In this document: in pieces, positions 4,272 through 40,851 of the stretch
How positions within the stretch are numbered: the stretch's first letter is position 1
How the letters are laid out: every line of letters begins with the position of its first letter
DNA from: a virus
Direction: 5' to 3' (one strand)
Length of the DNA: 64,000 nt
IMG/VR virus record: IMGVR_UViG_3300021962_000084
Span: 5,808-69,807 of that record
The notes under the pieces: model-generated
What the model was told of the DNA's origin: nothing
What the model saw: the letters and a program-made list of their open reading frames with translations, nothing else
Database searches by the model: none
Made by a program: the position numbers and the translations under genes

Positions 4272-4654
4272 TGACCAGAAAAAAACCTAATATAAACGTA
4301 CAAACAACACAATTATTGAGAGATAGACAGGCTTTCAAAGATTTTGTGCTTAAAATTAATACGGATACATTCACATATTCATATTCCCCAAATATAATTT
4401 CAGTAGAAAATCAAATATATTTTACTTTAACGTTGTTAAATAAAAAATTTGTTTTTGATATTTTAGTTGTAGATGATGTGAGAGATTACGTTGATGTATA
4501 TTTATTTGGAGTAAAGCAACCTGCGGATAGATATAATGTTCAACAGGTTGATACTAATATAATTGTTACATTCACAGCTGATATTACAAGATTACCAAAT
4601 GAGGTAAAAGCATCAGATTTCGAAATAAAAGGTAAAATAGCAGAAATAGTATAA
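4271..4654 (+). CDS. Hypothetical virion protein
   Basis: 127 aa, coupled on both sides (TAATG overlaps); VDVYLFG...FEIKGK is similar to the two preceding domains. Confidence 0.6.
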   Translation: MTRKKPNINVQTTQLLRDRQAFKDFVLKINTDTFTYSYSPNIISVENQIYFTLTLLNKKFVFDILVVDDVRDYVDVYLFGVKQPADRYNVQQVDTNIIVTFTADITRLPNEVKASDFEIKGKIAEIV

Positions 4655-7600
4655 TGGCAAGACTGATACCTCGTAAACAAATTGAAGAACAACAGGATAT
4701 AAGTGCTTCTTTAGCGATTAGAGAAAATCTATATGTTGGTAATGATATTATTAATAGCGGCTCATTATTTGTATCAAAAAGTTTCTTTTTGGGAAACGAT
4801 ACGGGCTCTTTAAATGAGATTACGGGTTCTGTATTCGTAACAGGTTCATTTACAGTTGATGGTTTATTTCAATTAGGTTCACAAACTTTATTTTCTGGAA
4901 CAGCTTCGTTTTCATCTGAATCTGTTGATACACAAAGATACTCTGGAATTCTTGCAAAAGATTTTGGTGCTAACCAACCTACATTATATGTTTCTTCAAC
5001 TGATGGTGATGATACTAACGATGGTAGAACAATTCAATATCCACTTCGTACAATTAAAAGAGCCGCTCAATTAGCATCTCCGGGGTATGATGGTAGATAT
5101 GGTTTTGATACTGGTTCGGTTTCAAATGGATATGTAATTAAGGTACAGGCAGGAACGTATTTAGAGGATAATCCTGTGATACTTCCATCCAACACAACCA
5201 TTTGGGGTGCTGGTTTGCGTATTACCAAAATTAACGCTAAGAATCCCTCTGAAGACCTTTTTTGGGTAAACGCTGGATGTTACATTGCCGAAGTTACTAT
5301 GGGAGGATTGAGATTATATCCAGACCAAATAAATCCTGAAAAAGGATTTGCTGTGGCTTTCCAACCTGGTGCATTTATTACAACTTCACCATACGTTCAG
5401 AACTGCTCGCAGATTTCAAACCAAGAGAATTCATTCACCGAACTTTATGAAGAAATACCGCCAGGTGGTGGAGGACTTTATGTTAATGGTGATGTAATTC
5501 ATCCCGATTCTCCATTGGCTTCAATGGTATTAGATGCTTATACTCAAATTTCTCCAAACGGAGTTGGGTGTTTAGTTAATGGTAGAGGTTTCATTCAGCT
5601 CGTATCTTTCTTTAATAACTTCTCATATTACGCAATTAGAGTAAACAATGGTGGACATGCTACACTAAACAACTCAAACATTTCGTTTGGTTTGTATGGT
5701 ATGTATGCTAGTGGTTCTCGTTTTATTTCTGGTAGTGGTGGTAATATTGATGCAAGAAATAGAGTAAGACAAAGTTGGAGTGTGGTAGTGGATGTACTTA
5801 ATAGAGGGTTGGGTGCACTTCCTGAAATAACAACTTTAAATACAGCAGAAGGCATTCGTGCAACATCTTTATCACAATATCCTCAATTATATCTTTCTGG
5901 TAGTGATATAAATTTAACACCAACTACACAAAATATTGAAGAAGTAGCTTCTGATTTTAAATTAATATCTGCTATTGTAGAAAATGGTACATCCAATTTT
6001 CCAACTCTTTTAGCAAGAAGTTCTAATAAGGGATATGGATTTGAATCTCCTTATAATATTTTAGGAGCTGAGCAAATTACATCATCAATAGCATCGGCAT
6101 CTGCTGAAATTTTAACTGATATAAGTGAATCATTTGGAGCTATATTGGGTATATTTGCAAATGGTACTGGTTCTTTTAATTTTGTATCAAATACCAAAAA
6201 TGCTATTAAAGCAACTGAATTAGAACCAACAGCTATTGGTATGTCTGTTTCAAATAGTATTACGGCTAGTGTTAGTTCATCATTTGAAACAGTAATATCA
6301 ATTATATCTTCTGGATTAACAGCAGTTGCAAAAGTAACTTCATCAAATGAAGCAGCTATAAAAGTTTCTGGTGTAGAACAATTTACAACGGGATTATCAT
6401 CATCTTTACAAACAACTAATAGTGTAAGTGCAAGTTTTAGTATAATTTACAATATTTTGGATAAAGGAACTGGTAGTGTAATTTTACCAATACCTGAAAA
6501 TCATCAAAGAAATTATACAATAACAAATAATGGTAGTTCATCGTATCAATGGCAAGGTGTAGGTTCAAATCCAACAATAACATTATATAGAGGTGAAACT
6601 TACAAATTTTATGTAAGTGCATCTAGCGTAGTTGGTGGAATAAATTATCCTTTCTTTATTAGAACTAGACCTTTAAGTGGTATTAGTGAACAATTTGATT
6701 ATGATAAAGGTGTAATAAATAATGGAGATTCAATTGGTAATATAACATTTACAGTACCATACGATGCTCCCAATGAATTATATTACGTTGCACAAAATAC
6801 GGATAATATGACAGGTAAGTTTCATATTATTAATAATTCAGCAACTCCGTTTGGTTTTATACAAAATACATTAACATATCCACAAACAATAAGTGGTAGT
6901 GTGGAATCAACATCTAATATAGATAAATTAAATGCTTACGAACTTCTTATTGGAAACAAATCATTTATTCAAGAAGAAACAATTGAATTTGTATCATCCT
7001 CTTGGTCTGATTTTGATTATGTAGAATCAACTTGCCGTAGAGATATTGGATATTTAATAGATGCGGTAGCTAATGACCTTATATATGGTGGAAACAATAA
7101 TAGTATTACCGCTGGTAGATTTTATTATGAGTATCCATCAACAGCAACTACAACACAAAAAGACCCAACCAAAACTGCAGTTAAATATGCAGCTGGAATG
7201 GCTGAAAAATTATTAAAAGGTGTAACATTCGTTGAACCAAACAATGAAAGAGATGCAGTAGCAACTGCTATACAGGCAAATAGAGAATTTATACAAACCG
7301 AAACAATAACGTTCCTTTCATCTTCTTGGAGTAACTTCTATTATAATGAAGCTAAATGTAAAAGAGATGTGGGATATATTTTAGATGCGGTAGCAACTGA
7401 TGCTAGATATGGTGGTAACGAAAGGTCTGTACAAGCAGGTCAATTCTATTATTTATATCCATCATTAGCAGTTGTTGATGGTGATGGTGATTCTGAAGGT
7501 CAATTAGGACAAACATTAGATGGAGTGCGTTTCGCAGCTGGTAATACTAATAATATAATAGCTGGAATTGTACATCAAACTGCATCATTGGATGTTAGAG

Positions 7601-10600
7601 AATCATATAGATTATTAAGAGAAAACAAAGAATTGATTCAAAACGAAACAATTCAGTTTATTAATGTAGCATATCCTCAATTAAAATATAATCAAGACAA
7701 ATGTAAGAGAGATGTTGGTTATATAATTGATGCAATATCAACTGACCTTCTTTATGGTGGAATCGAAAGAAGTGTAACTGCTGGTAAATATTATTATGAA
7801 TATCCATCACAAGCTACAAAAACGCAAAAGAGAGAAACTTCTGGTGGTATAAGATATTCTAAAATTATTTCTGACTTTATTGTTCAAAATATTGTTTTAG
7901 AAACTCCACGTATTATTACTAACGATGAAAAATTATTTAAAGTAGTAAGTGGTAGTAGTAATATTACATCTTCATTTAGTGGTACTATAAATGAGCAAAA
8001 TTCTATTAGTAGTTCATTTGCTATTATTGAAGGAATTATAAAAAGAGGAACTGCAGCCGTACCATCAATATTGGCACAAAATAGTGATTTGAATTGGAGT
8101 GTTGGCATTCCATTAAGCGTTACCGGTCAAACACAAATAACCAATTCATTCGTATCACCTACTGAAGCAGAAAAGTTAGGAAATGGATTTGATGTAGTTA
8201 CTTCTATACTTCAAAGTAATGGAGTTGAGCCTGTATTTACATCATCTTTAAATACACAAATAAAAGTAACAAACAACGAACAAATAACAGGTTCAGTATC
8301 TAATCCTTATGCATTAACATCATCAATATCAGCATCATTTGGATATGTTGTTGAAATTATAAGTGGTGGATTATCTAAATTAGACCCAATTGTTTCTAAT
8401 GTATCTGCAAGTATTAAAGTAACAGCAACTCCACAATTTACAAGTGGTGTAGTTGGTACAAATGCACAAACCTCAAGTGTTAGTTCTTCTTTCGGAAGTA
8501 TTATAAATGTGATTGTTAGTGGAACTGCTGCATTACCATCATTGGTACAAAATACAAATGCAAATAGAAAGGTAACAACAACTACACAATTCATATCAGC
8601 ATCTTATAGTGGTAGTTTGGAAGATATAGAATTTGTTTCACAATCTATTTCTAAAGTAACTCAAATAGTTGAAACTGGAAATGTAGACCTTTTTGGAAAA
8701 ACAAATTATTCAGCAAGTATTACTGCTAGAGTTGGGGTGTACGAAATATTAAAACAAAACATTCCATTTATACAAAACGAAACTATTGCATATCTAAGTT
8801 CTTCTTGGGCTGGATTCCAATATGATGAAGTTAAGTGTAAGAGAGATATTGGATTGATTGTTAGTGGAGCAGCGGAAGACCTTTTATTTGGTGCTAATTC
8901 GGCATCAATTGTAAACGGACAATTCTACTATGAATACCCATCACAAGCAACTATTGCAAATGATGGTGATACTGGTGGACAGTTAAATCAAACTTTAGAT
9001 GGTATAAACTACGCAAGTAGATTAGCACAAAAGGTAATTCAAAATGTCGTATTTAATTTACCATCAACTGAAGTATCTGCTTCAAACGCTTTATTATTTA
9101 ATAACAAAGAGTTTATCCAAAATGAAACAATCGCATACCTAAGTTCTTCTTGGGGTGGTTTTGATTATAACGAAACAACTTGTAAGAGAGATGTTGGATA
9201 TATTATTGATGCGGTTAGAACTGATTTGGTATATGGTGGTAATGAGAGAAGTAGACAGGCTGGTTTATATTATTTCTTATATCCATCTCAAGCTACTGGT
9301 TCTCAATTATTGCAAACAACAGATGGTATTAAATATGCATCGCATATCTCACAAAAGATAGTTAGTGGTTCGATATTCCAATCTGCTGATTCTGATAAAT
9401 TGGAAGTAAGTAGATTGATGAGAGTGAACAAAGGACTTATCGCTGATGAGGTTGTTGAGTATGTATCATCTTCTTGGAGTGAGGTATCATATAACGAAGA
9501 TAAGTGTAAGAGAGATGTGGGGTATATTATTGATGCAGTAAGAACTGACTTGGTATATGGTGGTAACGAAAGAACATCTATTGCGGGTGAATTCTATTAT
9601 CGATTCCCATCATCAGCAACCGTTGGAGGAGAACCTTCAGCAACTCAACAATTAGACCCAACTGTAACTGGTGTTGAGTATGCAAATCGTTTAGCACAAA
9701 ATATAGTTCAAAATAAAGTATTAGTTAATCCATCTGCGGAAGTATTAGCAGCAGCTGAATTAGTAAGAACTAATAGAACATTCTTACAACAAAACGTAAT
9801 ACAATTTATTTCTCAAAACTATCCTAATTTAGATTACATAGTTTCTAAATGTTTCAGAGATGTTGGATTTATTACCGATGGAGCTGTAACCGATTTAGTA
9901 TATGGTGGTAATGAGAGAAGTATAAACTCTGGTAGATTCTACTTTAAGTTTGCTAACAAAGCAACTGGTGACCAATTAGTTGAAACTGTAGCTGGTATTA
10001 ACTTTGCTAAAGATTTGGCTAAGTTAGTAGCAATTGGTGGAAAGGCTGTTGAAGATGGATATGATAACGTTGCTAAAATAATAGCAAGTGGAAGTTCATC
10101 TGCACCTGCTTTAGTAACAAATACTGAAAACGCAATTAGAAAGACAGTTGAGCAACAATTTACATCAAGTCAAAGTGTTCAATCATCTGATAAGCAATTA
10201 GTATCAGCATCATTTGCGAATGTAATTACTATAATTTCAAATGGTACTGGTTCTATACCAACAATTGTAGAGAGTTCTAATAGAGGTATATTAGTAACAA
10301 TTGGTTCACATCAAATAACATCATCAATAACTCCATCTTTAGCAGATATTAATAAAGTTGAAAGTGGATTTAATATTGTTACTAGCATAATAGAAAATGG
10401 TACAGGTTCATTACCTACATTAGTTAAGAACACTCAAAATGGTATTAAGAGAACTGATTCAATTCAATTTACTTCAACTGCATCTATTTCTAATACAATT
10501 ATTTCAAGCTCCAATACAGCATTTGATAATGTATTATTAATTGTATCTGACGGAACTGGTTCAACTCCAACTTTGGTTAAAAATACTTCTAATTTAGTTA

Positions 10601-13600
10601 AGGTAACAAACTCTACTCAATATATCGGAACTACTACTGTTTCTTCATCTATAATAAATGGTATCACTGGTAGTTTTAATACTATTATAACGATATTAGA
10701 AAATGGTATAGGTACTTTACCAAATGTAGTTGATAATACAATATCAGGTATTAAAGTAACAAACACTGCTCAATTTATATCTGCATCTGCTACTCAACTT
10801 GAAAGTAATTTAATATCGCAATCTATATCAATAGTAACTGATATTATAGCAAATGGTGTGGGTTCTACATTAGCATATTTACCAACATCATCTTATACAG
10901 CTTCCGTTAGTGATTTAAATAGATGGAAGGCTTATAATTTATTAAAAGCAAACATTCAGTTTATACAGGATGAAACTATTGCATATTTAAGTTCTTCTTG
11001 GAGCACTGCTTCTTATAATGAGGAAAAATGTAGAAGGGATGTTGGGTTGATTATTAGTGGAGCAGTTGAAGATTTGGTGTTTAATAGTAATTCCGCATCA
11101 TTAGTAAATGGAAAGTTCTATTATGATTATCCATCGCAAGCACAAGGTGCACAATTAAATCAAACTTTAGATGGTGTATTCTACGCATCTAAATTAGCAC
11201 AAAAGATTGTAAAAGGTGATGTGTTCAATTACCCATCTGCTCAATCAAATACTGCGTATGATTTATTGGTAAACAATAAGCAATTAATACAAAACGAAAC
11301 GATTGCTTACATTAGTTCTTCTTGGAGTACTCATCAATATAATGAAACAACTTGTAAGAGAGATGTTGGATATATTATTGATGCAGTAGCAACCGATGTT
11401 AAATGGGGTGGTAATGAAAGAAGTGTAAAAGCTGGAGAATTCTATTACTTATATCCATCCGAAGCAACAGGTTCACAAATAGAAGAAACTGTTACTGGTA
11501 TAACCTATGTTAGAAACTTAGCAGATAGATTATTAAGAAATCTAACACTACAATCGGTTTCTCAAAATAAATTACAAGCTAAACAACTTATTTTCAATAA
11601 CAAAGAGTTTATACAAAACGAAGTTATTGAGTATGTATCGGCTAGTTGGAACGGATTCTTATACAACGAAGATACTTGTAAGAGAGATGTAGGATTCATT
11701 TTAGATGCAGTGGCTACTGATGTGGTCTATGGTGGAAATGAGAGAGCCTTAGAAGCTGGAAGGTATTATTACTTATATCCATCCGAAGCAACTACAACTC
11801 AATTAGGTCCAACCCTGAGCGGTATTAGACATGCAAAGGGAATGTTAGAACAAATATTGAAAAATTCAGTATTTGGATTAGCATCTAATTCGGCACAAAC
11901 GGCTTACAATTTATTATTAGAGAATAAGCAATTAATACAAAACGAAACGATAGCATTTGTAAGTTCTTCTTGGAGTATGTTCAATTACAACGAAGCAAGT
12001 TGTAGTAGAGATACTGGATACATCGTAGATGCGGTAGCAACTGATATACTTTATGGTGGAAACGAAAGAGTAAGAGAAGCTGGTGAATACTACTATCTAT
12101 ATCCATCGTTAGCAACGGTTGATGGTGATGGAGATGCGGCTGGACAATTGGGACAAACTTTAGATGGTGTAAATTACGCTAAAGGAATTTCTAAAAAGAT
12201 AGTATCAAACATCTTATTACAATCAGCAAGTATTTCCGAATTAACTGGTTGGAGTTTATTAAGACAAAATAAACCATTGATTCAAAAAGAAACTATTGCT
12301 TACCTAAGTTCTTCTTGGACTGGAGTTGATGGTTTCTATTATAACGAAGCAAGTTGTAGTAGAGATGTTGCGTACATCATTGATAATGTAGCAACTGATT
12401 TATTATATGGTGGAAATGAAAGAAGTTCTAAAGCTGGTGAATACTATTTCTTATATCCGTCAAAAGCAACGGTTGGTGGAGTTCCATCGGTTAATGCACA
12501 ATTAGAACAAACTGTACAAGGTATCAGATTTGCAGCAGGAACTGCACAAAATGTAATATCAAATACAATATTAGAACAGCCTACTCAATTCGTATCATCT
12601 TCAGTAAGTTTATTAAGAAGTAATAGAGGATTCATCCAAAATGAAACTATACAATACATAGATGCATTCTTCCCTAGCTTAGTTTACAATAGAGAAAAGT
12701 GTAGAAGGGATGTTGGATATATTGTTGATAATGTATCTACTGATTTATGGTATGGTGGAAATGAAAGAAGCATTATAGCTGGTGATTACTATTATCGTTA
12801 TCCATCTTTAGCAACTAAGCAAGAGCAAGTAAGAGAAACTGTGGCAGGTGTTGAATACGCAAAAGCAGTATCAAAGGCAATTGTACAAAATGTATTATTA
12901 CAAACTCCATCTTTAGTTTTAAATACTGATGGTAATATTAAAGTGGGTAGTGTAGCACAAATAACATCATCGTTATCAGCTACAAATACTGAAGTATCAA
13001 ATATTAGTTCATCGTTCTCAACCGTAACAAAAATTATTGAAGGTGGTTTGAGTGTGTTACCAACAATTACTTCTAACAACGAAGGTTTAATTAAGGTAAC
13101 AAATGAAACTCAAATAACATCATCAATATCAGCATCATCTGCTGAAGTTGGTGTTGTAACGGCATCATTTGGATTGATTAGAGATATAATATATTGGGGT
13201 TCTGCTTCATTACCTGATTCATTAGCTAATAACTTCCAATATGGATTTAATAATAGTGTACCAACATTATTGCGTATTTCTTCATTCACTCAAACATTAG
13301 GAAGTGGTGTATATAATGCACAAACATCAAGCGTAAGTTCTTCATTTGGTAATGTAATTAATGTTATCAACAATGGAACGGCTTCATTACCAACATTGGA
13401 AGCTAATACATCGGCAAGTGTAAGTGTAAGTGGTATTACTACATTCAAATCAACAACATCTGGTTCTGAATATCAAAAAAGTAGAATTGGAAACTTATTT
13501 GGTGTTGTTATGAATATAGTTGAAGGTGGTAGAAGTTCTATACCTACATTATTATCAAATACATCGTCTAGTATTAAAGTAACAAATACTCCACAAATTA

Positions 13601-16600
13601 TTAGTGGTAGTGGTAGTGATAGATTGCAAGCAAGATTAGTATCATCATCATTTGGTATTGTAATAGACTCATTATTAAATAATGGTACTAGTTCAATTGC
13701 TTATGTTGGACCAACTGGAATTAATACAAATGCAAAAATAACATCTGCATATAATTTGTTATTAAATAACCAACAAATGATTATAGATGAAACCATAACT
13801 TATATGAGTTCATCTTGGAGTAATTTTGTTTATTCTCAATCATTATGTGAGAGAGATTTAGGGTTGATTATTAGTGGAGCAGCATTTGATTTATTATGGG
13901 GTGGTAATTCCGCATCATTAGTAAATGGTAAATACTATTTCGAATCCGCATCTCAAGCAACTACTACACAATTAGACCAAACAATTACTGCTATCCGATA
14001 TGCTGGTGGAATTATTGAAAAGGTTGTTAGAAATACACCATTAGTACATATTTCAGCATCATTAGAAACATCGGCATCATATACATCATTGATTAAAAAC
14101 AAAGGATTTATACAATCTGAATCAATATCTTATGTAAATTCTTCTTGGGAAGGATTTGAGTACAATGAAGCAAGTTGCAGTAGAGATATTGGTTATATTG
14201 TAGATGCGGTAGCAACTGACTTGTTATATGGTGGTAACGAAAGAAGTATTATAGCTGGTAGATACTATTATGATTTCCCATCTGAAGCTACTTCAACACA
14301 ATTAGAACCAACATTGACCGGTGTAAGATTCGCTAAAGGAACTTCTATGAACGTAGTTGTTAATAAGCAATTCTTCTCACCAAATGCAAACAACCAAACG
14401 GCTTACAATTTAATTAAAGATAATAAAGAGTTTGTTCAGGAAGAAACTGTGGCATTTGTAAACGCTAAGTACCCTGAATTGGATTACATTGAAGATAAGT
14501 GTAAGAGAGATGTGGGTTATATTGTAGATGCAGTAGCAACTGACTTATTATATGGTGGAAACGAAAGAAGTAACAAAGCTGGTGAGTTCTATTACTTATA
14601 TCCTTCATTAGCAACTGAAAATGAGCAAGTAATTGAAACAACAACTGCAGTAGATTATGCTAGAAGATTAACACAAAATGTTATCAATAGTATAGCAATA
14701 GAAACTCCGCAAATTGTTCTTAATACTACAAATAATATTAAGGTAACAAACACACCTCAATATGTTAGTTCATCATTTAGTGGAAGTGCATACGAAGCGG
14801 GATTAATATCAGCATCTATTTCAATCGTAACAAATATTGTAGCAAATGGAACTGGTTCTGTTGGAACTCCTGTAAATTATACAACTCCATCAACTGCATC
14901 GAATGTTTGGTATGCATACAATTTATTGAAAGAAAATATTCCATTCATCCAAAGTGAAACGATTGCTTATATTAGTTCTTCTTGGAGTACTGCTTCTTAT
15001 AATGAGGCAAGTTGTAGTAGAGATGTAGCATTAATTGTAAGTGGAGCAGCTGAAGATATGTTATTTGGTGTAGATTCTGCATCAATTGTGAATGGTAAGT
15101 TCTACTATGAATATCCATCTGAAGCAACTGGTTCTCAATTAAACTATACATTGGATGGATTGTTCTACGCAAGTAGACTAGCACAAAAAGTTCTTCAAAA
15201 CGTAGAATTCGTAACAGCATCTTTATTAGTATCTGCATCTTACGCATTGATAAGAAATAATAAATTATTCATACAATCAGAATCCGTAGAATATGTTGAT
15301 TCTTCTTGGGTTGGATTGGATTACAATAAAGAAAAATGTAGAAGGGATGTTGGTCATTTAATTGACGCAGTTTCAACTGATTTATTGTATGGTGGAAATG
15401 AAAGAAGTGCAATAGCTGGAGAATACTATTTCAAATATCCATCAGAAGCTACAACAGGTTCTCAATTAGACCCAACGGTGGATGCAATTGATTACGCAGC
15501 TGGAGTAGCAAGTAAAGTAATACAAAGTTTAACATTTGTAACGGCTTCACAAATCATATCAGCATCGGTTGGATTGTTGAGAGGAAATAGAAACTTCATT
15601 CAGGAAGAAACAATGGCATACTTAACTGCTAGTTGGAGTACTTTTGAATATGATAAAGTTAAATGTAGACGTGATGTAGGATATGTTATTGATGGTGTAG
15701 CAACTGATTTACTATATGGTGGAAACGAAAGAAGTGTGATGAGTGGGGAGTTCTATTATAGATACCCATCTAAAGCAGTATTGTTGGGTGATGGTGATGG
15801 AGCTGGACAATTAAAACAAACTGTTGATGGTATAAACTACGCAAGTAGAGTAGCACAAAAAGTTGTCAAAAATACTGTATTCCAAAATGCATCATCAGCA
15901 GCTTCTGCATCATTTGATTTATTAAGAAAAAATAAATCATTTATAGCAGGAGAGGTAATTGAATATGTATCTTCATCTTGGAGTACTGTTTATTACAATC
16001 AAGCTTCTTGTTCGCGTGATGTGGGATATTTAATAGATGCAGCAGCAACAGATGTACTTTATGGTGGTAAGGAACGAAGTGTAATAGCAGGTAATTTCTA
16101 TTATCTATTCCCATCAAAAGCAACTGTGGCTGGTGTTCCATCTGAAGCAAATCAATTAGACCCAACAATTACGGGTGTGAGATATGCTGGAAGATTAGCA
16201 ACTAAAGTTGTAGTTAATCCAAAATTTGTGGAAGCTTCTGGTTCTGCTATTGGTGGCAGTAGATTATTAAAATTAAATAAATCTCTAATCCAAAAAGAAA
16301 CTATAACATTCTTAAGTTCTTCTTGGAGTACATTGGTTTACAACGAAGCAAGTTGTTCTCGTGACGTAGGATTTATTATAGATGCGGTAAGAACTGACTT
16401 AGTTTATGGTGGTAATGAAAGAAGTATTGAAGCAGGCTCGTACTACTACAAAATTCCTTCAGTAGCAATTAAAGAATCTTATACTGATAATGGTACATTT
16501 GGACAGAAAAAACAAACTGTTGATGGTGTAAATTACGCAGGTGGTATTTCCGAAAAGATTGTAGCACAAACTCAATTAGTAAGACCTGGTACAAAACGAA

Positions 16601-17211
16601 TTGAAGCTACTAATAGATTAAGAGGAGCTAAGGAAGAATTAAAACAAAGAGCAATTGGATACACCAATGGGGCATTCCCTTATTTGGTTTACAATGAAGC
16701 AAGTTGTTCGCGTGATACTGGTTTGATTGTGGATGCTTGTTGCACTGATTTATTCTATGGTGGAAACGAAAGAGCAATCGCAGCAGCATCATCATATTAT
16801 ACAGGACAATACGGAAATGCGGATGAGGTAATATTTAAACAAAGACTAGAAACTCTTGAAACTAATAGATATTTAAGAACTAGAGCAGAGTTTATAGCAG
16901 CTGGTGCTCCTGTTGAAGCATTTGGTTCTCTAATTGTGGCAACTGGTATTGACTACTCTTATAATGGTAGTGGTGTGACATTTAAAGCACTTCCTCCAAA
17001 TCAGGGTGGTAGTGGTGTGGCAAATCCAATTTATGAGATTACCGAATTAGGAGGAGGTAGAATATTCTTTACTTCTGGTAACCAAGATGGTGACTTTAGA
17101 ATTGGAACTGGATTGAGTATTAATCAGGCAACTGGTACTCTTGTGGGTAGAACATTTAGTAAATCTCTATTCTCATTAGTAACTCCGTTCTCATTAGCAC
17201 TTCAAATATAA
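4654..17211 (+). CDS. Giant virion structural protein (4185 aa): beta-helix-like N-terminal region, degenerate cupredoxin-like domain, 22 CxRD helical repeats
   Basis: Uninterrupted ORF. N-terminal LYVSSTDGDDTNDG...PLRTIKRA and TSPYVQNCS and C-terminal GGRIFFTSGNQDGDFRIG...F.KSLF.LVTPF.LAL resemble large structural proteins of T4-like aquatic phages. The central ~3700 aa is built from two repeat types. Confidence 0.8.
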   Translation: MARLIPRKQIEEQQDISASLAIRENLYVGNDIINSGSLFVSKSFFLGNDTGSLNEITGSVFVTGSFTVDGLFQLGSQTLFSGTASFSSESVDTQRYSGILAKDFGANQPTLYVSSTDGDDTNDGRTIQYPLRTIKRAAQLASPGYDGRYGFDTGSVSNGYVIKVQAGTYLEDNPVILPSNTTIWGAGLRITKINAKNPSEDLFWVNAGCYIAEVTMGGLRLYPDQINPEKGFAVAFQPGAFITTSPYVQNCSQISNQENSFTELYEEIPPGGGGLYVNGDVIHPDSPLASMVLDAYTQISPNGVGCLVNGRGFIQLVSFFNNFSYYAIRVNNGGHATLNNSNISFGLYGMYASGSRFISGSGGNIDARNRVRQSWSVVVDVLNRGLGALPEITTLNTAEGIRATSLSQYPQLYLSGSDINLTPTTQNIEEVASDFKLISAIVENGTSNFPTLLARSSNKGYGFESPYNILGAEQITSSIASASAEILTDISESFGAILGIFANGTGSFNFVSNTKNAIKATELEPTAIGMSVSNSITASVSSSFETVISIISSGLTAVAKVTSSNEAAIKVSGVEQFTTGLSSSLQTTNSVSASFSIIYNILDKGTGSVILPIPENHQRNYTITNNGSSSYQWQGVGSNPTITLYRGETYKFYVSASSVVGGINYPFFIRTRPLSGISEQFDYDKGVINNGDSIGNITFTVPYDAPNELYYVAQNTDNMTGKFHIINNSATPFGFIQNTLTYPQTISGSVESTSNIDKLNAYELLIGNKSFIQEETIEFVSSSWSDFDYVESTCRRDIGYLIDAVANDLIYGGNNNSITAGRFYYEYPSTATTTQKDPTKTAVKYAAGMAEKLLKGVTFVEPNNERDAVATAIQANREFIQTETITFLSSSWSNFYYNEAKCKRDVGYILDAVATDARYGGNERSVQAGQFYYLYPSLAVVDGDGDSEGQLGQTLDGVRFAAGNTNNIIAGIVHQTASLDVRESYRLLRENKELIQNETIQFINVAYPQLKYNQDKCKRDVGYIIDAISTDLLYGGIERSVTAGKYYYEYPSQATKTQKRETSGGIRYSKIISDFIVQNIVLETPRIITNDEKLFKVVSGSSNITSSFSGTINEQNSISSSFAIIEGIIKRGTAAVPSILAQNSDLNWSVGIPLSVTGQTQITNSFVSPTEAEKLGNGFDVVTSILQSNGVEPVFTSSLNTQIKVTNNEQITGSVSNPYALTSSISASFGYVVEIISGGLSKLDPIVSNVSASIKVTATPQFTSGVVGTNAQTSSVSSSFGSIINVIVSGTAALPSLVQNTNANRKVTTTTQFISASYSGSLEDIEFVSQSISKVTQIVETGNVDLFGKTNYSASITARVGVYEILKQNIPFIQNETIAYLSSSWAGFQYDEVKCKRDIGLIVSGAAEDLLFGANSASIVNGQFYYEYPSQATIANDGDTGGQLNQTLDGINYASRLAQKVIQNVVFNLPSTEVSASNALLFNNKEFIQNETIAYLSSSWGGFDYNETTCKRDVGYIIDAVRTDLVYGGNERSRQAGLYYFLYPSQATGSQLLQTTDGIKYASHISQKIVSGSIFQSADSDKLEVSRLMRVNKGLIADEVVEYVSSSWSEVSYNEDKCKRDVGYIIDAVRTDLVYGGNERTSIAGEFYYRFPSSATVGGEPSATQQLDPTVTGVEYANRLAQNIVQNKVLVNPSAEVLAAAELVRTNRTFLQQNVIQFISQNYPNLDYIVSKCFRDVGFITDGAVTDLVYGGNERSINSGRFYFKFANKATGDQLVETVAGINFAKDLAKLVAIGGKAVEDGYDNVAKIIASGSSSAPALVTNTENAIRKTVEQQFTSSQSVQSSDKQLVSASFANVITIISNGTGSIPTIVESSNRGILVTIGSHQITSSITPSLADINKVESGFNIVTSIIENGTGSLPTLVKNTQNGIKRTDSIQFTSTASISNTIISSSNTAFDNVLLIVSDGTGSTPTLVKNTSNLVKVTNSTQYIGTTTVSSSIINGITGSFNTIITILENGIGTLPNVVDNTISGIKVTNTAQFISASATQLESNLISQSISIVTDIIANGVGSTLAYLPTSSYTASVSDLNRWKAYNLLKANIQFIQDETIAYLSSSWSTASYNEEKCRRDVGLIISGAVEDLVFNSNSASLVNGKFYYDYPSQAQGAQLNQTLDGVFYASKLAQKIVKGDVFNYPSAQSNTAYDLLVNNKQLIQNETIAYISSSWSTHQYNETTCKRDVGYIIDAVATDVKWGGNERSVKAGEFYYLYPSEATGSQIEETVTGITYVRNLADRLLRNLTLQSVSQNKLQAKQLIFNNKEFIQNEVIEYVSASWNGFLYNEDTCKRDVGFILDAVATDVVYGGNERALEAGRYYYLYPSEATTTQLGPTLSGIRHAKGMLEQILKNSVFGLASNSAQTAYNLLLENKQLIQNETIAFVSSSWSMFNYNEASCSRDTGYIVDAVATDILYGGNERVREAGEYYYLYPSLATVDGDGDAAGQLGQTLDGVNYAKGISKKIVSNILLQSASISELTGWSLLRQNKPLIQKETIAYLSSSWTGVDGFYYNEASCSRDVAYIIDNVATDLLYGGNERSSKAGEYYFLYPSKATVGGVPSVNAQLEQTVQGIRFAAGTAQNVISNTILEQPTQFVSSSVSLLRSNRGFIQNETIQYIDAFFPSLVYNREKCRRDVGYIVDNVSTDLWYGGNERSIIAGDYYYRYPSLATKQEQVRETVAGVEYAKAVSKAIVQNVLLQTPSLVLNTDGNIKVGSVAQITSSLSATNTEVSNISSSFSTVTKIIEGGLSVLPTITSNNEGLIKVTNETQITSSISASSAEVGVVTASFGLIRDIIYWGSASLPDSLANNFQYGFNNSVPTLLRISSFTQTLGSGVYNAQTSSVSSSFGNVINVINNGTASLPTLEANTSASVSVSGITTFKSTTSGSEYQKSRIGNLFGVVMNIVEGGRSSIPTLLSNTSSSIKVTNTPQIISGSGSDRLQARLVSSSFGIVIDSLLNNGTSSIAYVGPTGINTNAKITSAYNLLLNNQQMIIDETITYMSSSWSNFVYSQSLCERDLGLIISGAAFDLLWGGNSASLVNGKYYFESASQATTTQLDQTITAIRYAGGIIEKVVRNTPLVHISASLETSASYTSLIKNKGFIQSESISYVNSSWEGFEYNEASCSRDIGYIVDAVATDLLYGGNERSIIAGRYYYDFPSEATSTQLEPTLTGVRFAKGTSMNVVVNKQFFSPNANNQTAYNLIKDNKEFVQEETVAFVNAKYPELDYIEDKCKRDVGYIVDAVATDLLYGGNERSNKAGEFYYLYPSLATENEQVIETTTAVDYARRLTQNVINSIAIETPQIVLNTTNNIKVTNTPQYVSSSFSGSAYEAGLISASISIVTNIVANGTGSVGTPVNYTTPSTASNVWYAYNLLKENIPFIQSETIAYISSSWSTASYNEASCSRDVALIVSGAAEDMLFGVDSASIVNGKFYYEYPSEATGSQLNYTLDGLFYASRLAQKVLQNVEFVTASLLVSASYALIRNNKLFIQSESVEYVDSSWVGLDYNKEKCRRDVGHLIDAVSTDLLYGGNERSAIAGEYYFKYPSEATTGSQLDPTVDAIDYAAGVASKVIQSLTFVTASQIISASVGLLRGNRNFIQEETMAYLTASWSTFEYDKVKCRRDVGYVIDGVATDLLYGGNERSVMSGEFYYRYPSKAVLLGDGDGAGQLKQTVDGINYASRVAQKVVKNTVFQNASSAASASFDLLRKNKSFIAGEVIEYVSSSWSTVYYNQASCSRDVGYLIDAAATDVLYGGKERSVIAGNFYYLFPSKATVAGVPSEANQLDPTITGVRYAGRLATKVVVNPKFVEASGSAIGGSRLLKLNKSLIQKETITFLSSSWSTLVYNEASCSRDVGFIIDAVRTDLVYGGNERSIEAGSYYYKIPSVAIKESYTDNGTFGQKKQTVDGVNYAGGISEKIVAQTQLVRPGTKRIEATNRLRGAKEELKQRAIGYTNGAFPYLVYNEASCSRDTGLIVDACCTDLFYGGNERAIAAASSYYTGQYGNADEVIFKQRLETLETNRYLRTRAEFIAAGAPVEAFGSLIVATGIDYSYNGSGVTFKALPPNQGGSGVANPIYEITELGGGRIFFTSGNQDGDFRIGTGLSINQATGTLVGRTFSKSLFSLVTPFSLALQI
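5760..16890 (+). repeat. Protein-level repeat array: 22 core repeats (~95-110 aa, CxRD) in clusters of 3,4,6,3,6 and 22 partner helices in groups of 5,5,6,5,1
   Basis: Counted by eye in the translation. Core consensus AYxLLxxNKxFIQxETIxYxSSSW...YNExxCxRDVGYIIDAVATDLLYGGNERSxxAGxYYYxYPS...TxxGIxYA; helix consensus ISSSFxxVxxIIxxGTGSLPTLV. Confidence 0.85.
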
Positions 17212-17235: not shown

Positions 17236-18159
17236 ATGGCAGAAGTTTTTGTACCACTAAATCGATTCCAGTCAGTTGTAACAAATCTGACTGGTGAAGA
17301 AGATGAAATATATGTTACACCGACTGGTGTATCATCAATTGTGCTATCAGCTCAAATTACAAATAATAGTTTTTCAACACAACCTGTAACTATTTTTGTA
17401 ACATCTAATAGAGAATTACCTGTACCTTCCTTTGAAGGACTTTATATTAGTTCATCTTTTTATACTGGTTCTACATCTTTAGAAAATCTTAGTGGAAGTT
17501 TTGATAGTGCATCTGCCCTTCTTAATTTGAATAGACAGTTTATTCGTAAAGAAGTAGCAGCATATACATCATTTCAAAATAATTTGCAAGAAACTCCATT
17601 TACGTTTGTATCTTCTCGTTTTGAAGATTATGCATTAGGAGCAACTGATGCAATTACATACGATATAGCAAATTCAAAAACAATTAGAACAGACAAAGAG
17701 GCAAGAAATTATTTTACAAAAAATGGTATCAATATTATAAAAACTTCTTATGATGAAGAATATTCATCATCTTTATTTGCTTTAGATTATGTTGGAAAAT
17801 TAGCAGGGCAAATTATAAAAAACCAATCGGTAACAGGTTCAGCTGAAATTGGTAGATTCTATCAAACATCAGTAACTCAATCATTTGATTCAACTTATGC
17901 AATAAGCGGTTCTGCATGGAGTGGTTCTAACTACGTTATAACGGAATTGCTGAATGTTATCAGAGATACAATAGAAAATCCTAATTTAGTAGCACAAAGG
18001 GCCGTAAAATTAGTAACAAATGTAACTATACCATCTGCTGATTCACTTTCACCAGTTGTAAGTGGTAAATTGGTGTTAGAGGAAGGATATGGTTTCATCG
18101 TTTCGGGTTCAACGGAATTAAGTGTGATTCTTTCTTTGCTTGAAAGTGCAAATGAATAA
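17236..18159 (+). CDS. Fibre adaptor-like protein with one inserted degenerate copy of the 4185-aa repeat
   Basis: N- and C-terminal parts align with ORF 30884..31216 (IYVTP / AYTTP; GKLVLEEG / QKVVLEAN). The middle (SASALLNLNRQFIRKEVAAY...DAITYDI...ALDYVGKLAGQII) is a Cys-less repeat copy. Confidence 0.7.
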   Translation: MAEVFVPLNRFQSVVTNLTGEEDEIYVTPTGVSSIVLSAQITNNSFSTQPVTIFVTSNRELPVPSFEGLYISSSFYTGSTSLENLSGSFDSASALLNLNRQFIRKEVAAYTSFQNNLQETPFTFVSSRFEDYALGATDAITYDIANSKTIRTDKEARNYFTKNGINIIKTSYDEEYSSSLFALDYVGKLAGQIIKNQSVTGSAEIGRFYQTSVTQSFDSTYAISGSAWSGSNYVITELLNVIRDTIENPNLVAQRAVKLVTNVTIPSADSLSPVVSGKLVLEEGYGFIVSGSTELSVILSLLESANE

Positions 18160-18226: not shown

Positions 18227-21200
18227 ATGGCAATAAGTAATCTATTAACGGGAAGGGTAAGGGTAGTTTCACCTAAAAATGTAACATCAGACAGGTATCA
18301 ATTTCTTGATTTATCTCAAGCTGAACCAAATTTAGGTGTTCCTAATTTCAGTGCTTCATTGTCTGGGTCCCCAGCTATCGTAGTATCGGATGACCAAGGC
18401 AACAGAGGATTTGTAAGAAGCCTTGATTTAGAGAGAGTAACTGGACAATTTACAGGCTCATTTACAGGTAGTGCTACCGATTTAAGTGGTAGTTTTTCTG
18501 GTTCGTTCACTGGTTCATTTATAGGAGATGGTTCTCGATTAGTTAATCTTCCTGAAGTAACTAGAATAGCAAGTGGTTCTGCAACAGCCTCAATATCTCC
18601 AAATTTTGGATTTCAAATAAATGTAGATACAACTATTACTGAAAATCTTTATGTATCTAAATCAATTTATGCTGAACAATTAATTGTTTCTTACATATCA
18701 TCATCTATAATTTATTCATCTGGTTCAAATGTATTTGGTGATTCTGAAAATGATTCACAGCAATTTACTGGTTCGGTTGAGGTAAGGGATAGATTAAATG
18801 CTTATGTAATTTCTGGTTCAACCATAGCTGGTAATTTAACTGGTTCATTTATTGGATTAGCAGAAGCTACGGGTTCATTTAGTGGTTCTTTAATAGGAAG
18901 AAGTGATACATTTGGTACATTTACTGGTTCTGCTGAAGCAACGGGTTCATTTAGTGGGTCTTTTATTGGTACGGCTGATTTATTCGGAACATTTACAGGT
19001 TCTGCAGAACTGACTGGTTCGTTTAGTGGTTCATTTACAGGTTCTTTCTTTGGAGATGGTAGAAATTTATTTAACTTACCAGAAGCAACAAAATTAGCAA
19101 CTGGTTCTGTTACGGCATCTGTAACACCTGAATTTGGATTTAAAGTATTATCAATTGATAAAGGTTCTGAATTTACTGGAAGTGTCGATATTACTGGTAG
19201 TTTAAGTATAACAGCAACATCTGGAGCATTAGTATTGGGTTCTTCATCAGCGTATTATGGCGAGGGTACATATTTAAGAAACATACCTCGTTCAGCATTA
19301 ACGGAAGATGCATTAGTTTCATCTTTTATTGTAAGTGGTAGTGTAACAGCATCAGTTTCTCCTAATTTTGGATTTGTTGTAAAATCACCTGATAGTGGTT
19401 CTGAATTTACAGGTTCTGTTGATGTAAGTGGAAGTGTAATTGCACAATTCTTTATAGGAGATGGTTCTCAATTATTAAATGTACCATCAACTGTTGCACC
19501 TAGAATAGCAAGTGGAAGCGTAACTGCTTCTGTTTCTCCTCAATTTGGATTTAAAGTAGAATCGAATGCAAGTGGTTCTGAATTTACTGGTTCAGTAGAT
19601 ATATCAGGTTCTATATCAGCATCATTATATAGGGGTGATGGTAGTGGATTATTTAATATTCCGGTATCAGCATTATCGGAAGAAGTATCTCGTATCGCTA
19701 GTGGTAGTGTAACCGCATCAGTTTCTCCTGTATATGGATTTAGAGTTGAAGCAGCAGCAAGTGGGTCTGAATTTACTGGTAGTGTTAATGTAACTGGTAG
19801 TGTAATTGTAGAAAGTGGTTCTATATATGTTGGTGATGGTAGTGGATTAAGAAATATTCCATTATCTGCATTGGCTGAAGAAGTAGTTGCTGCAACAAAA
19901 ATATTATCTGGAAGTGTAACAGCTTCTGTATCTCCTGAATTTGGATTTAGAGTAGAATCTACACTTAGTGGTTCTCAATTTACAGGTTCTTTATTAGTAA
20001 GTGGAAACGTAGAATTATATACTGGTTCATTTAGTGGTAGTGGTAAGAATCTTAGAGAAATTCCAAAATCAGCAATTTCTGATTTAGATACATCTTTAAT
20101 CTTTTCTGGTTCTGCAACTGCATCAATTAATCCTGTAAAAGGGTTTAATGTAAATATATTTTCACAATTTAGTGGAAGTATGTCTGTATCGGCTTCTAAC
20201 TTTGTAGTACCAAGTCAATCATTAGATTTAACATTTAATGTAACAAATGATGGTTTCGCAGCTTATGTATTTACTGGAGCAGCAAGCGGTTCAAATCCAA
20301 CACTTACTTTAGTAGAAAATGTTGTTTATAGATTTGTAGTAAATGCACCCGGTCATCCTTTTTATATTAAAACAACAAACACAAGCGGAGCTGGTGGTGC
20401 ATATAACTCTGGAGTATTAAACAATGGTACTGATAATGGTGTAGTAACATTTAATGTACCATCTGGAGCACCATCAACATTATATTATGTTTGTGGAAAC
20501 CACTCATCAATGGTAGGTACAATTAATATTGTATCTGAAATAGTAAGACCTGCATTGATTGAGTTTATAGGACCTACTAATATCACTGGAAGTTTAGGAA
20601 TTAGTGGTAATGTTACTGCATCTATGTTTAGTGGAAGTGGTAGAGGATTATTTGATATTCCATTCACATCATTTACAGGAGATGCATTTAGAATAGCTAG
20701 TGGTTCGGTTACAGCGTCTGTTGCACCCAATTATGGATTTAGAGTTGAGGCTTTAGATTTGGGTAGTGAATTTACAGGTAGTGTTGATATAAGTGGTTCA
20801 TTATTTGTAAGTGGTTCAATAACCGCATCTAAGGGAATAGTTGCAAATACAATATCAGCATCATTCTTTATTGGCGATGGTTCTCAACTTAGAAATGTAC
20901 CATCATTAGAAAGTTTTAGAATTGCTAGTGGTAGTGTAACCGCATCCGTTTCTCCTGATTTTGGATTTAGAGTTGATTCTGTTGAACTTGGTTCATATTT
21001 TAGTGGAAGTGTTAAGGTTAGTGGAAGTATATTCACATTTGGAAATATAGAACTACAAAGTGGTTCTGCGTTTAGTGGTAGTGGTAAAAATTTATTTGAT
21101 ATACCTCGTTCCGCTTTAACTCCTGATGCATTAGAATCAACATTCATAGCAAGTGGTAGTGTAACTGCATCGGTTACTCCAAATCAAGGATTTGTTGTTC

Positions 21201-24200
21201 AATCGGTTGCAAGTGGTTCTAAATTTAGTGGCTCGTTATTCCTAAGTGGTTCAGTATTTTTAACAACTGGTTCATTTAGTGGTAGTGGTAAGCAATTATT
21301 TGATATACCCGTTGCGGCCATTTCCGATTTAGATACATCAAAAATATTTAGTGGTTCGGTAACCGCATCCGTTTCTCCTGTTCAAGGATTTGTAGTTACA
21401 TCTTATGCAACGGGAAGTACATTCTTAGGTAGTGTAAGAGTAACAGGAAGTTTATCAGCAACAGGAAGTGGATTTTTTGCAGCGGGTGTATCGGCATCAG
21501 TATTTAGTGGTAGTGGTGCAGGTTTAACGGATATTCCGTTTTCAGCATTATCGCAAGAATTATTTAGAATAGCAAGTGGAAGTGTAACTGCTTCCGCATT
21601 GCCTGATAGAGGGTTTGTTGTTCAATCTGCGGCAAGTGGTTCAAGAATAACTGGTAGTGTTGCAATTACAGGTAGTTTAACAATAACTGCAACCTCTGGA
21701 GCATTGGTATTGGGTTCTTCATCAGCTTATTTTGGAGAAGGTACTTATTTAAGAAATATACCTAGAAATGCATTAACTGAAGATGCATTATTATCAACGG
21801 AAATTAAATCTGGTTCGGTAACTGCGTCTGTATCACCTGACTTTGGATTTGTAGTAAAATCTCCTGATAGTGGGTCAGAATTTACTGGTTCTATTGATGT
21901 TAGTGGTAGTTTGTATGTTAGAGGTGATGTAACTTCTACTAGTGGTTCTTACTTTATTGGAGATGGTAGGTATTTATCAAATATAACAGTTGCAAATTTA
22001 GCAATTGATTCTACAAAAATATTTAGTGGAAGTGCTACTGCATCTATTTCACCAACTGAAGGATTTGAAGTAAATACTCATTCTAGATTCGATGGTAGTT
22101 TTATTGTATCATCTTCTGGAAGGCCTACTCCTGATTATTTAATTGAAAAAGTATTTAATGTAACAAATGAAGGTAGTAATGCATACACTTTTAGTGGAGC
22201 TGCAACTGGTTCAAATCCAAACATTACTTTAGTAAGGGGTACAACATATACATTTAATGTAAACGCTCCTGGTCATCCTTTTTGGGTAAAATATGTTGCT
22301 TCAATAGGAACATCTTGGCAATATAGTGGAAGTATTTCAAATAATGGTACTGATAATGGTACTATAACATTTACGCCACCATCTGGTTCTCCTGATACAT
22401 TGTATTACAATTGCCAACTTCATTCTTTGATGGCAGGTACTATAAACATAGTAAATGAAATTACTATACCTGCTGAAATTAAATTTGTTGGAAATACAAA
22501 AATAGAAGGCAACTTAACTGCTTCTATGTATAGTGGTAGTGGTAGAGGATTATTTGATATACCTCGTTCAGCGTTATCGGAAGAAGTATTTAGAATTGCT
22601 TCTGGTTCAATAACAGCATCAGTAACTCCTGATTTTGGATTTAAAGTTGAATCAATAGAAAGTGGTTCTCAATTTACTGGTTCTGTTAATATTAGTGGAA
22701 GCTTATATATAAATCCTTATAGTGGTTCATTACAATTAGCATCTGGTTCATCTTATTATGGTGAGGGTTCTTATTTAAGAAATATCCCTCGTTCGGCACT
22801 TACCGAAGATGCACAAATATCAACCGAAATCAAATCTGGGTCAGTTACCGCATCAGTATCACCTGATTATGGATTTATTGTATTAACTCCATTTACATCT
22901 TCATTTGGTGAAAATGGTTCATTTACCGCATCGATAGCATCGCAATTTACTGGTTCGGTTTCTATATCTGGTAGTTTATTTGTTGGTGATGTAAGTGGTG
23001 GTTTGTTTATAGAATCATCATCATTTATATACGCAGAAGGTACTTATTTAAGAAATATACCTCGTTCATCTCTAACAGAAGATGCACTTATTAGTACCGA
23101 AATCAAATCGGGTTCAGTAACTGCATCTGTAACTCCTGACGAAGGCTTTAGAGTAATTACTCCATTTACTGGTTCGCAAATTGGTTCTCAATTTACTGGT
23201 TCGGTTAATGTAAGTGGTTCTATCATTGTAGATGACGTAACTGCTAGGGGATTCTTCTTTGGTGATGGTAGGTATATTACAAACGTACAAGCGGCAGCAG
23301 CTCCTTTAATCGCTAGTGGTTCGGCAACGGCATCCGTAGCAAGTGGCGAATCTTTTGTAGTAATAACTGCAAAAACAGGTTCACAAATTGGTTCTGAATT
23401 TACTGGCTCGGTTGGTATTAGTGGTTCTATTTCAGCATTTGATATTACATCCACTGGATTCTTCTTTGGTGATGGTAGATTTATTACAAATGTACAAGCA
23501 TCAGCGGCACCATTAATCGCTAGTGGTTCGGCAACTGCATCAGTAGCAAGTGGTGATACTTTTATAGTAACTACATCTGCAACTGGTTCTCAAATTGGTT
23601 CTAGAATTACTGGTAGTGTTTCAGTTAGTGGTTCATTAACTGCTGATGATTTAACTGCAAGAGGATTTGTATTTGGTGATGGTAGATATTTAACAAATGT
23701 ACAAGCGGCAGCAGCTCCTTTAATCGCTAGTGGTTCGGCAACCGCATCGGTACAAAGTGGACAACAATTTATTGTAACAACTGCACCATCATCTGGTTCA
23801 TATCAATCTCAATTCACATCATCGGTAGCAATTAGTGGTTCGATAACTGCATCTTTATTTATAGGTGATGGTGGTGGATTATTTAACATTCCACCTGATG
23901 CGATTGAAAACTTAGAGTTATTTAAAATTAACTCTGGTTCTGGATTTGCACAGGTAGACCCAACTAAATTATTAGTAAACGTACCAATAACAGCGGCACT
24001 TTACATAGGTGATGGTGGTGGACTATTTAATATCCCTGCAAATGCATTACAAGACCTTAAGTTAGATAGAATTATATCAGGTTCGGTTCAGGCGGTAATA
24101 TCTCCTGATAAAGGATTGGAAGTTGGAACTAAAACATTCGTATCTGGTAATTTAAGTGTTAGTGGTGGATTATTTGTGACAGGAGGAAATGTAATAGTTT

Positions 24201-40300: not shown

Positions 40301-40330
40301 TAATTGGTTACCTTTTTTAAAAAATACACA

Positions 40331-40338
40331 TATTTATA
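40331..40338 (+). promoter_or_regulatory. TATTTATA motif, putative late promoter
   Basis: Intergenic, upstream of the ATG at 40356. Confidence 0.6.
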
Positions 40339-40355
40339 CATAAAAGAAATATATT

Positions 40356-40781: not shown

Positions 40782-40801
40782 TGGTTTTTAGTTCAAATAT
40801 T

Positions 40802-40846
40802 AAAAAGACCCAAACATTAATATTAAAATTGTGTTTTGGGTCTTTT
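40802..40846 (+). terminator. Intrinsic terminator-like inverted repeat, possibly bidirectional
   Basis: AAAAGACCCAAA...TTTGGGTCTTTT arms with an AT-rich loop, between the fibre block and the sheath gene. Confidence 0.65.
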
Positions 40847-40851
40847 CATTA

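Follow-up and report, generated by a model that had tools for sequence, protein, structure and literature searches.

The window considered here, a stretch of 64,000 nucleotides covering positions 5,808 to 69,807 of the viral record IMGVR_UViG_3300021962_000084, carries a giant gene (4654-17211, plus strand) for a protein of 4185 amino acids (aa), P0001, which contains two kinds of repeat unit, H and C. The best-supported explanation for the arrangement of these units, and one that we consider likely, is a nested, branched fold of the single chain. The repeat part would consist of 22 two-piece modules, in which the C piece would provide a phycobiliprotein-like globin core and the H piece a strand and a helix. 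It appears that the chain would go outward as a string of H units, turn, and return as C cores, each packing on the H unit laid down last, with short strand-to-strand rungs at the unit boundaries. Because the runs are of unequal length, the hairpins would nest, and the predicted outcome is a trunk of six modules with arms of three, four, six, and three modules, at the base of which the non-repeat N- and C-terminal domains would lie side by side. We infer the exact H-C contacts, as well as the closure of the trunk by the N-terminal H1-H2 with the C-terminal C21-C22. An earlier note on this DNA had proposed that domains completed by a distant H build up a tree; this reading is supported by unit counts, linkers, fold-back models, and relatives in which the two units alternate.

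Balance of the H and C units and position of the linkers

The Cys-x-Arg-Asp motif occurs 22 times in P0001, in clusters of 3, 4, 6, 3, and 6, and accounts for 22 of the 27 cysteines of the protein. Profiles grown from one seed unit each of P0001 itself (the seed being picked by residue number) recovered 22 C units of approx. 110 aa (i-E ≤ 2e-34, the nearest other hit being at E 0.048) and 22 H units (i-E ≤ 3.8e-09, the nearest other hit being at E 0.16) in the order H5-C3-H5-C4-H6-C6-H5-C3-H1-C6, i.e., both the numbers and the order given in the earlier note were reproduced. The C unit comprises five helices with the invariant Cys-x-Arg-Asp. The H unit, previously described as an amphipathic helix repeat, does contain a helix (20 residues), but it is not a helix alone: the complete tandem unit spans approx. 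51 aa and begins with a short strand. The finer details of the earlier description were also found, namely three atypical linkers (aa 453-466, 1140-1153, and 2857-2870, corresponding to nucleotides 6010, 8071, and 13222) and a short one (IGGKAVEDG, aa 1794-1802). An alignment of the 22 cores revealed that an aromatic-Pro variant replaces the Ser-Ser-Ser-Trp stretch in the last core of each cluster (5/5) and that a Ser-Gly-Ala variant marks the first core of clusters 2-5 (4/4), three of these four first cores being preceded by a Ser-Ile-Ser variant of H.

It is the homologues, rather than this single protein, that place the equality of H and C beyond chance. Among 121 giant homologues from the protein database, counted with profiles rebuilt from up to 1500 units of all 121, the two numbers are equal in 75, and H falls one short of C in 30. 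Of the other 16, two have a deficit of two, and 14 (2373-3923 aa) have unit strings with a sudden beginning or end and are probably fragments. Each of the 30 one-unit deficits falls in the first (14) or third (16) H run, the same runs that hold the weakest H units of P0001, i.e., the most divergent (H1) and the half-length one (H11). A 3075-aa protein of a complete relative has 15 units of each kind, and representatives from a library of 1.84 billion proteins add an 18/18 form and two forms of 12/12. Seventeen distinct balanced architectures, ranging from 12 to 28 pairs, were found, and they differ by at least nine distinct unit gains or losses, every one balanced between H and C (H1-C6 to H2-C7 to H3-C8; H6-C6 to H7-C7 or H5-C5; H6-C6 to H6-C4-H4-C6; C3-H1-C6 to C8, among others). 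The running balance never becomes negative in any of the 76 balanced proteins, so that valid nesting is possible in all of them. Indeed, matched changes of H and C among homologues were what the earlier note had proposed to look for.

The linkers provide a second line of evidence. Branch junctions were predicted from the unit string alone by last-in-first-out pairing, with H-H spacing taken from a conserved Gly. At these junctions the spacing is at least 56 aa in 213 of 224 cases (median 58), whereas at junctions not predicted as branches it is 48-54 aa in 981 of 1072 (median 51) and long in only 88, most of which are H1-H2. When junctions are counted by architecture and H1-H2 is set aside, branches comprise 40 long and 8 regular junctions, compared with 8 long and 176 regular elsewhere. 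The proposal that atypical linkers mark the predicted branch points, which had been based on a single protein, holds for most such junctions across the homologues. Inserted domains of at least 60 aa are found in homologues at H-to-C turns (101) and between H units (32), and none occurs between C units or at C-to-H joints.

Fold models, covariation, and alternative architectures

Two segments were folded with AlphaFold2 (AF2), using alignments taken from related loci by coordinates. Model 1, a six-pair segment with a predicted branch (aa 2758-3750) that would form a closed unit of trunk and arm, reached a mean predicted local distance difference test score (pLDDT) of 83.7 and a predicted template modelling score (pTM) of 0.60; model 2, a two-pair tip (aa 2919-3246), reached 88.9 and 0.88, respectively. 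All H helices of model 1 have a pLDDT of approx. 85-95, and the sole long stretch under 50 is the H18-H19 branch linker. Its DSSP strand residues are confined to unit boundaries, where the H side and the C side have five strands each; under nested pairing, partners are of equal size (2-2, 2-2, 1-1, 2-2, and 2-2). An unbiased structure search of the models against 48,161 chains (VIA-align) was informative about pairing, since matches of model 1 to compact folds of 110-120 residues span a distant H and its predicted partner C. Such rows join H18 to C18 (10 rows, model residues 50-97 to 868-870), the H19 helix to C16 (2 rows, 130 or 135 to 590), H20 to C15 (4 rows, 160-181 to 481-482), and H22 to C17 (1 row, 606-731); of the 17 long-span rows whose first residue lies within an H unit, all extend to the predicted partner, and none reaches a non-partner core. 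Model 2 gives three further rows from the H20 helix to C15. Because H18 and C18 are approx. 700 residues apart and flank the arm, their joint match is the best evidence presented here for a branch. Modelling of predicted pairs and of an arm, another check named in the earlier note, yielded confident fold-back.

Covariation was scored in 36 proteins of one architecture. The nested pairing has a total mutual information of 681.7, compared with 589.8 ± 18.9 for 1000 random pairings (none of which reaches 681.7), 577 for first-in-first-out pairing, and 611.7 for parallel pairing within arms. Covariation favours nested over random, first-in-first-out, and parallel pairings, and it does not identify the nested pairing uniquely. 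A two-chain prediction for the trunk ends, H1-H2 (aa 345-470) with C21-C22 (aa 3860-4095), gave a score of 0.00 and, having been run without controls, counts neither way.

The wider C family was surveyed as well. The C profile matches 1318 representative clusters at E ≤ 0.001 (964 at E ≤ 1e-10), and among the 150 best representatives, 148 were new and two were already in the first set. Only 19 of the 148 are of the sorted type. In the 129 non-sorted proteins, the median C-to-C period is 157-162 aa, with or without a detected H, compared with 108 aa in sorted C runs; the one-to-one ratio of H to C in this wider family rests on spacing. The giant protein of S-CAM1, for example, contains five cores, each followed by an H-like helix. 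The common form is therefore an alternating module of approx. 160 aa, and the lineage of the window represents a sorted variant of it. The giant proteins of cyanomyoviruses (S-CAM1 SXBG_00073, S-PM2, S-RSM4, ACG-2014i, and Syn9 'putative fiber; 101') share with P0001 the C module with Cys-x-Arg-Asp, the PHROG families, giant size, and structural annotation. However, they are 24-35% identical to P0001, and in them C alternates with H-like units (five of each in S-CAM1), so that no fold-back is needed there.

Several observations weigh against a nested, branched fold. The architectures share ancestry, and their counts are thus not independent events. The eight regular junctions among the 48 predicted branches are mostly found in forms that resemble recent H4-C4 tip duplications, and the long linker after the second H persists in H5-C8 forms, in which the small arm is lost and no branch is predicted. 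The alignments behind the two models are shallow (36 and 87 rows), the H-C pairing in the models was deduced from first and last aligned residues and DSSP rather than from contacts, and nine long-span rows whose first residue falls on a unit boundary are ambiguous (595-599 to 868-873 in eight of them, 50 to 986 in the ninth). In the covariation analysis, 16 of 231 single swaps beat the nested pairing, and hill-climbing finds higher-scoring pairings that have only two to five pairs in common with it. In the wider family, the H profile gives equal numbers of H and C in only 7 of the 148 proteins.

Finally, folds obtained for single chains are compatible with an oligomeric state. Phage fibres are commonly trimers, and H units might pair one to one with C cores of another chain, forming an interlaced bundle of swapped arms instead of a single-chain tree; arm swapping, too, would require equal numbers and complementary runs. 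Nonetheless, we consider this unlikely, because a parallel, in-register assembly sets H opposite H, because both the nesting rule and the linkers at branch points belong to a stack formed within one chain, and because single chains fold back confidently by themselves. An antiparallel dimer as the source of equal H and C was rejected, since the reversed unit string does not set H against C. Even less probable is a linear fibre in which H runs and C runs are independent tandem segments, with H units forming small domains or a rod of their own, C cores folding alone, and equal numbers arising from ancestry and chance: it agrees with the regular tandem repetition of each unit, with the descent of most architectures from one ancestor, with the scarcity of equal profile counts in the wider family, and with the globin-like match that C already yields alone, but it is difficult to reconcile with gains and losses that are all balanced, with long linkers at junctions predicted from counts alone, with compact models whose matches join H and a distant C, and with the spacer of approx. 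50 aa that follows each core where C cores lack preceding H runs.

Phycobiliprotein likeness of the C module and a possible role of bilin

The C module is probably a relative of phycobiliproteins, by kinship or by fold. Two explanations of this likeness have to be weighed. It might be a shared helical arrangement or a very old, pigment-free kinship, in which Cys-x-Arg-Asp would be structural and the phage heme oxygenase and bilin reductase would serve, for example, iron release or host physiology; we place this at close to an even chance. Alternatively, and more tentatively, somewhat short of an even chance, the nested tree may be a pigment array, in which each of the 22 cores would bind, through its conserved Cys, a bilin made by the heme oxygenase and bilin reductase of the phage; in Synechococcus phages, attachment might be performed by a phage CpeT encoded just upstream of the giant gene.

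The predicted structures point to a globin-like phycobiliprotein fold. The top nine VIA-align rows of model 1 are all phycobiliproteins or bilin-binding globins (Z 8.5-9.7; root-mean-square deviation (rmsd) 2.4-3.9; 99-111 residues aligned), as are 8 of the top 11 rows of model 2 (Z 7.8-9.5). They include the bilin domain of ApcE, allophycocyanin, phycoerythrin, phycobilisome core chains, and photocobilins, and haem globins rank lower in both models (Z 4.5-8.2), which argues against a general helical likeness. The best rows are 4xxi_A (Z 9.7, rmsd 3.2, 99 aligned), 8imk_G (Z 9.7, rmsd 2.4, 104 aligned), 5aqd_M (Z 9.7, rmsd 2.4, 111 aligned), and 8or7_A (Z 9.5-9.6), with the photocobilins 8j2y_B and 8j2w_B also among the top matches (Z 9.3-9.5 and 7.4-7.8). 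However, for helical models a Z under approx. 13 can reflect a common arrangement, so that even the best values (9.2-9.7) lie below the safe level of the tool and fit the pigment-free explanation, as does a Foldseek search of both models against the PDB, which returned nothing at E ≤ 0.001. The C matches end at phycobiliprotein residues 141-151, short of the last helix, and on the N-terminal side they reach only the H-unit boundary. This fits the suggestion, already made in the earlier note, that H would supply the last, phycobiliprotein-type helix.

The evidence at the sequence level is weak, yet it tends in the same direction. The best PDB-sequence matches of the 22-core profile are phycocyanin alpha chains, at marginal E values of 0.67-1.1, and in 1f99_A, 3brp_A, and 1phn_A (E 0.67-0.9) the Cys-x-Arg-Asp is aligned to the Cys-84 site. 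The motif is present in 22/22 cores of P0001, and 2675 of 2678 cores from 122 proteins retain its Cys, Arg, and Asp, with the residue between them varying freely; in phycobiliproteins, these residues hold the bilin. PF00502 passed its whole-protein cut-off (22.2) in both homologues scanned, P0017 (36.4 bits) and P0096 (36.0 bits), although in neither did any one stretch pass alone, and precomputed matches exist for 8 of the 120 homologues listed. In contrast, PF00502 has no match at E ≤ 1 in P0001 and none in any of its 22 single cores, and an ESM Atlas search with one core yielded no more than a lead of 0.76 to an unrelated DUF.

Compared with phycobiliproteins and the ApcE bilin domain (PF00502), P0001 thus shares a globin-like helical core, the Cys-x-Arg-Asp at the Cys-84 chromophore position, and, for C plus H, a module of approx. 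160 aa, which is the length of a phycobiliprotein. ApcE, which attaches its bilin autocatalytically, is likewise one long chain with such a domain among repeats. The differences are that P0001 has 22 copies in one phage structural chain, that the last helix would come from a separate run, that no alpha-beta ring assembly is indicated, that the sequence likeness is marginal, and that the pigment site is only putative. Bilin biosynthesis-associated globins (BBAGs) and photocobilin bilin domains resemble P0001 in being phycobiliprotein relatives outside photosynthetic antennae. However, BBAGs are small soluble cellular proteins beside bilin genes, whereas P0001 is a virion-type protein of 4185 aa; in the complete relative G001, the giant gene (approx. 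112-125 kb) lies more than 100 kb from the bilin cassette (243-244.5 kb), a distance that favours the pigment-free explanation.

Nonetheless, that cassette is a consistent feature of complete relatives. When the 15 viral records with the giant gene were searched for the bilin reductase family PF05996, matches above cut-off were obtained in five, i.e., in all four records that are at least 97% complete (188-274 kb) and in one of 11 fragments, and in all five a heme oxygenase gene adjoins the reductase gene. No bilin reductase was found in the record of the window itself (41% complete) or in nine other fragments (27-67% complete), absences that are uninformative because of this incompleteness. 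In G001 (complete, 252.6 kb), the region 242482-246033 contains a thymidylate synthase gene upstream of the cassette and phage GroES and GroEL genes downstream, and an open reading frame (ORF) of 99 aa without a known family lies between the reductase and GroES. This type of bilin reductase matches only 23 of 50,697 isolate phage records, the closest being that of Pelagibacter phage Mosig (31% identity), in whose genome no C module was found. At 36653-43279 of Mosig, heme oxygenase and bilin reductase genes lie beside neck genes, after three 2OG-Fe(II) oxygenase genes and a ferrochelatase gene. Neither psbA nor cpeT was found in the record of the window or in five relatives, including two of the four complete genomes (G001 and G002), and CpeS was not found in five relatives; the searches of these relatives thus gave neither a T-type nor an S-type lyase, which again fits the pigment-free explanation. 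Because psbA is missing, the hosts may not be cyanobacteria.

In cyanomyoviruses, the genetic context is different: cpeT adjoins the giant gene, whereas the lineage of the window has the cassette of heme oxygenase and bilin reductase genes, and no cpeT was found in it. Synechococcus myoviruses from four genera share one order, in which cpeT is encoded on the strand of the giant gene and ends 0.4-1.4 kb upstream of it, and in 11 of the 12 phages common to both listings cpeT lies 1.0-3.7 kb from the best C-module match, an association that speaks for pigment. The exception is P-HM2, in which C-like modules are located inside gp7 (54712-55203), annotated as the baseplate wedge initiator; S-PM2 and P-HM2 both carry cpeT together with C-like modules. 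However, the C module is present in 284 phage records and cpeT in only 62, and T-type lyases are described in a review as serving the Cys-153 site and not Cys-84; both points favour the pigment-free explanation. A search of genome contigs with the S-CAM1 CpeT, aimed at reaching a cyanobacterial genome, gave no match. Between cpeT and the giant gene, S-CAM1 and S-PM2 have clustered tRNA genes and a gene for a 2OG-Fe(II) oxygenase. The RefSeq record of S-PM2 places many tRNA features within the giant coding sequence, which looks like an annotation conflict.

The bilin genes of phages have been discussed in the literature. According to Wegner et al. 2024 (PMC11480375), heme oxygenase and bilin reductase cassettes occur in marine and freshwater myophages, such genes in phages of non-photosynthetic hosts are 'still enigmatic', and BBAGs might be partners of the bilin that phages make. 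How bilin genes benefit Prochlorococcus phages is called unclear by Clokie et al. 2010 (PMC2984593), and the passages on phages in Rockwell et al. 2023 concern only PcyX. No report of phycobiliprotein-like domains in phage structural proteins was found in the literature.

The giant gene in its genomic setting

The window corresponds to the structural block of a large T4-like myovirus, with neck, sheath-stabiliser, sheath, baseplate-hub, and several giant fibre genes, and derives from a viral record of 69.8 kb with an estimated completeness of 41%. By tail sheath, the nearest isolates are Microcystis phage Mel-JY01 (47%) and Flavobacterium phages (48%). The giant gene was defined from the ORF list, its translation, and PHROG matches. 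P0001 matches the profiles of phrog_4527 (E 5.9e-205, in 22 stretches) and phrog_5342 (E 9.8e-166), families of the giant cyanomyovirus proteins labelled 'short tail fiber' or 'virion structural'; the former is a PHROG annotation label only and does not imply kinship with T4 gp12. Megablast of the giant gene against isolate phages gave no match. The neighbouring genes encode neck, sheath, baseplate-hub, and fibre proteins, and the Syn9 homologue is annotated 'structural protein; putative fiber'. The giant gene thus appears to encode a virion fibre-type protein of an uncultured large T4-like myovirus, and we infer from this context that the protein is located in the particle.

Along the gene (all features on the plus strand), the N-terminal non-repeat domain (4654-5700, aa 1-349) lacks H or C hits, has its best stretch of similarity to phrog_5342 ('tail fiber protein') at aa 111-215, and is presumed to be the attachment end. 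H run 1 (H1-H5; 5701-6504, aa 350-617) was located by profile, with anchor spacings of 60, 59, 50, and 51; its long linkers follow H1 and H2, which are the predicted trunk units, H3-H5 being the predicted arm 1. Between H5 and C1, where the tip of this arm is predicted, lies an inserted, strand-rich domain of approx. 120 aa (6505-6918, aa 618-755); homologues P0018, P0036, P0090, and others bear inserts of approx. 130 or approx. 390 aa. The C runs were delimited by motif, profile, and alignment. C run 1 (C1-C3; 6919-7917, aa 756-1088) is followed by H run 2 (H6-H10; 7927-8697, aa 1092-1348), in which H6 is predicted to belong to the trunk and has a long linker after it, and by C run 2 (C4-C7; 8722-10065, aa 1357-1804). 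H run 3 (H11-H16; 10042-10893, aa 1797-2080) begins with the half unit H11, which covers only profile positions 26-53, and precedes C run 3 (C8-C13; 10915-12918, aa 2088-2755). In H run 4 (H17-H21; 12925-13719, aa 2758-3022), H17 and H18 are predicted trunk units and a long linker follows H18; C run 4 (C14-C16; 13732-14718, aa 3027-3355) is represented in both AF2 models. The single H22 (14725-14886, aa 3358-3411), located by the H profile, and C run 5 (C17-C22; 14899-16929, aa 3416-4092) complete the repeat part, C22 being the most divergent core (27% identical to C1). The C-terminal non-repeat domain (16930-17211, approx. 93 aa) is matched by phrog_3442 at aa 4091-4183, and 34 of the 37 homologues listed have likewise retained 92-93 aa beyond their last C.

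Directly downstream, an ORF of 307 aa (17236-18159, plus strand) contains one degenerate C-like domain without Cys (C profile E 0.0048, aa 90-207), and three complete relatives (G001, G011, and G012) have a comparable ORF, weakly matched by C, after the giant gene. Further along the window, two more giant ORFs (18227-29167, 3646 aa; 31232-40300, 3022 aa) have strong matches to collagen-like tail-fibre PHROG families. The first of these contains a stretch of 50% G+C (26-28 kb), compared with a window average of approx. 33%, and between the two lies an ORF of 147 aa (30080-30523) that matches tail-fibre assembly and chaperone PHROG families.

The giant protein likely functions in host recognition or adsorption and possibly carries bilin pigments. 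We know of, and found, no counterpart in which a repeated domain is divided into two pieces that occupy separate runs of the chain and the chain nests into a branched tree. If the nested fold is correct, a balanced-bracket grammar in the sequence predicts a three-dimensional topology. Moreover, a phycobiliprotein-like virion protein with 22 conserved attachment-type sites is a candidate acceptor for phage-made bilin, and, if it does accept bilin, the bilin 'auxiliary metabolic genes' of myoviruses would be, at least partly, genes for building the virion. In Liu et al. 2019, some phages are reported not to adsorb in the dark and tail fibres are named as a possible light sensor; light-dependent adsorption has been reported for S-PM2, P-HM1, and P-HM2, the last of which reportedly does not adsorb in the dark. 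If the nested tree is a pigment array, the particles might bear a coloured, light-responsive fibre, which would be a candidate sensor for the light-dependent adsorption of S-PM2, P-HM1, and P-HM2.

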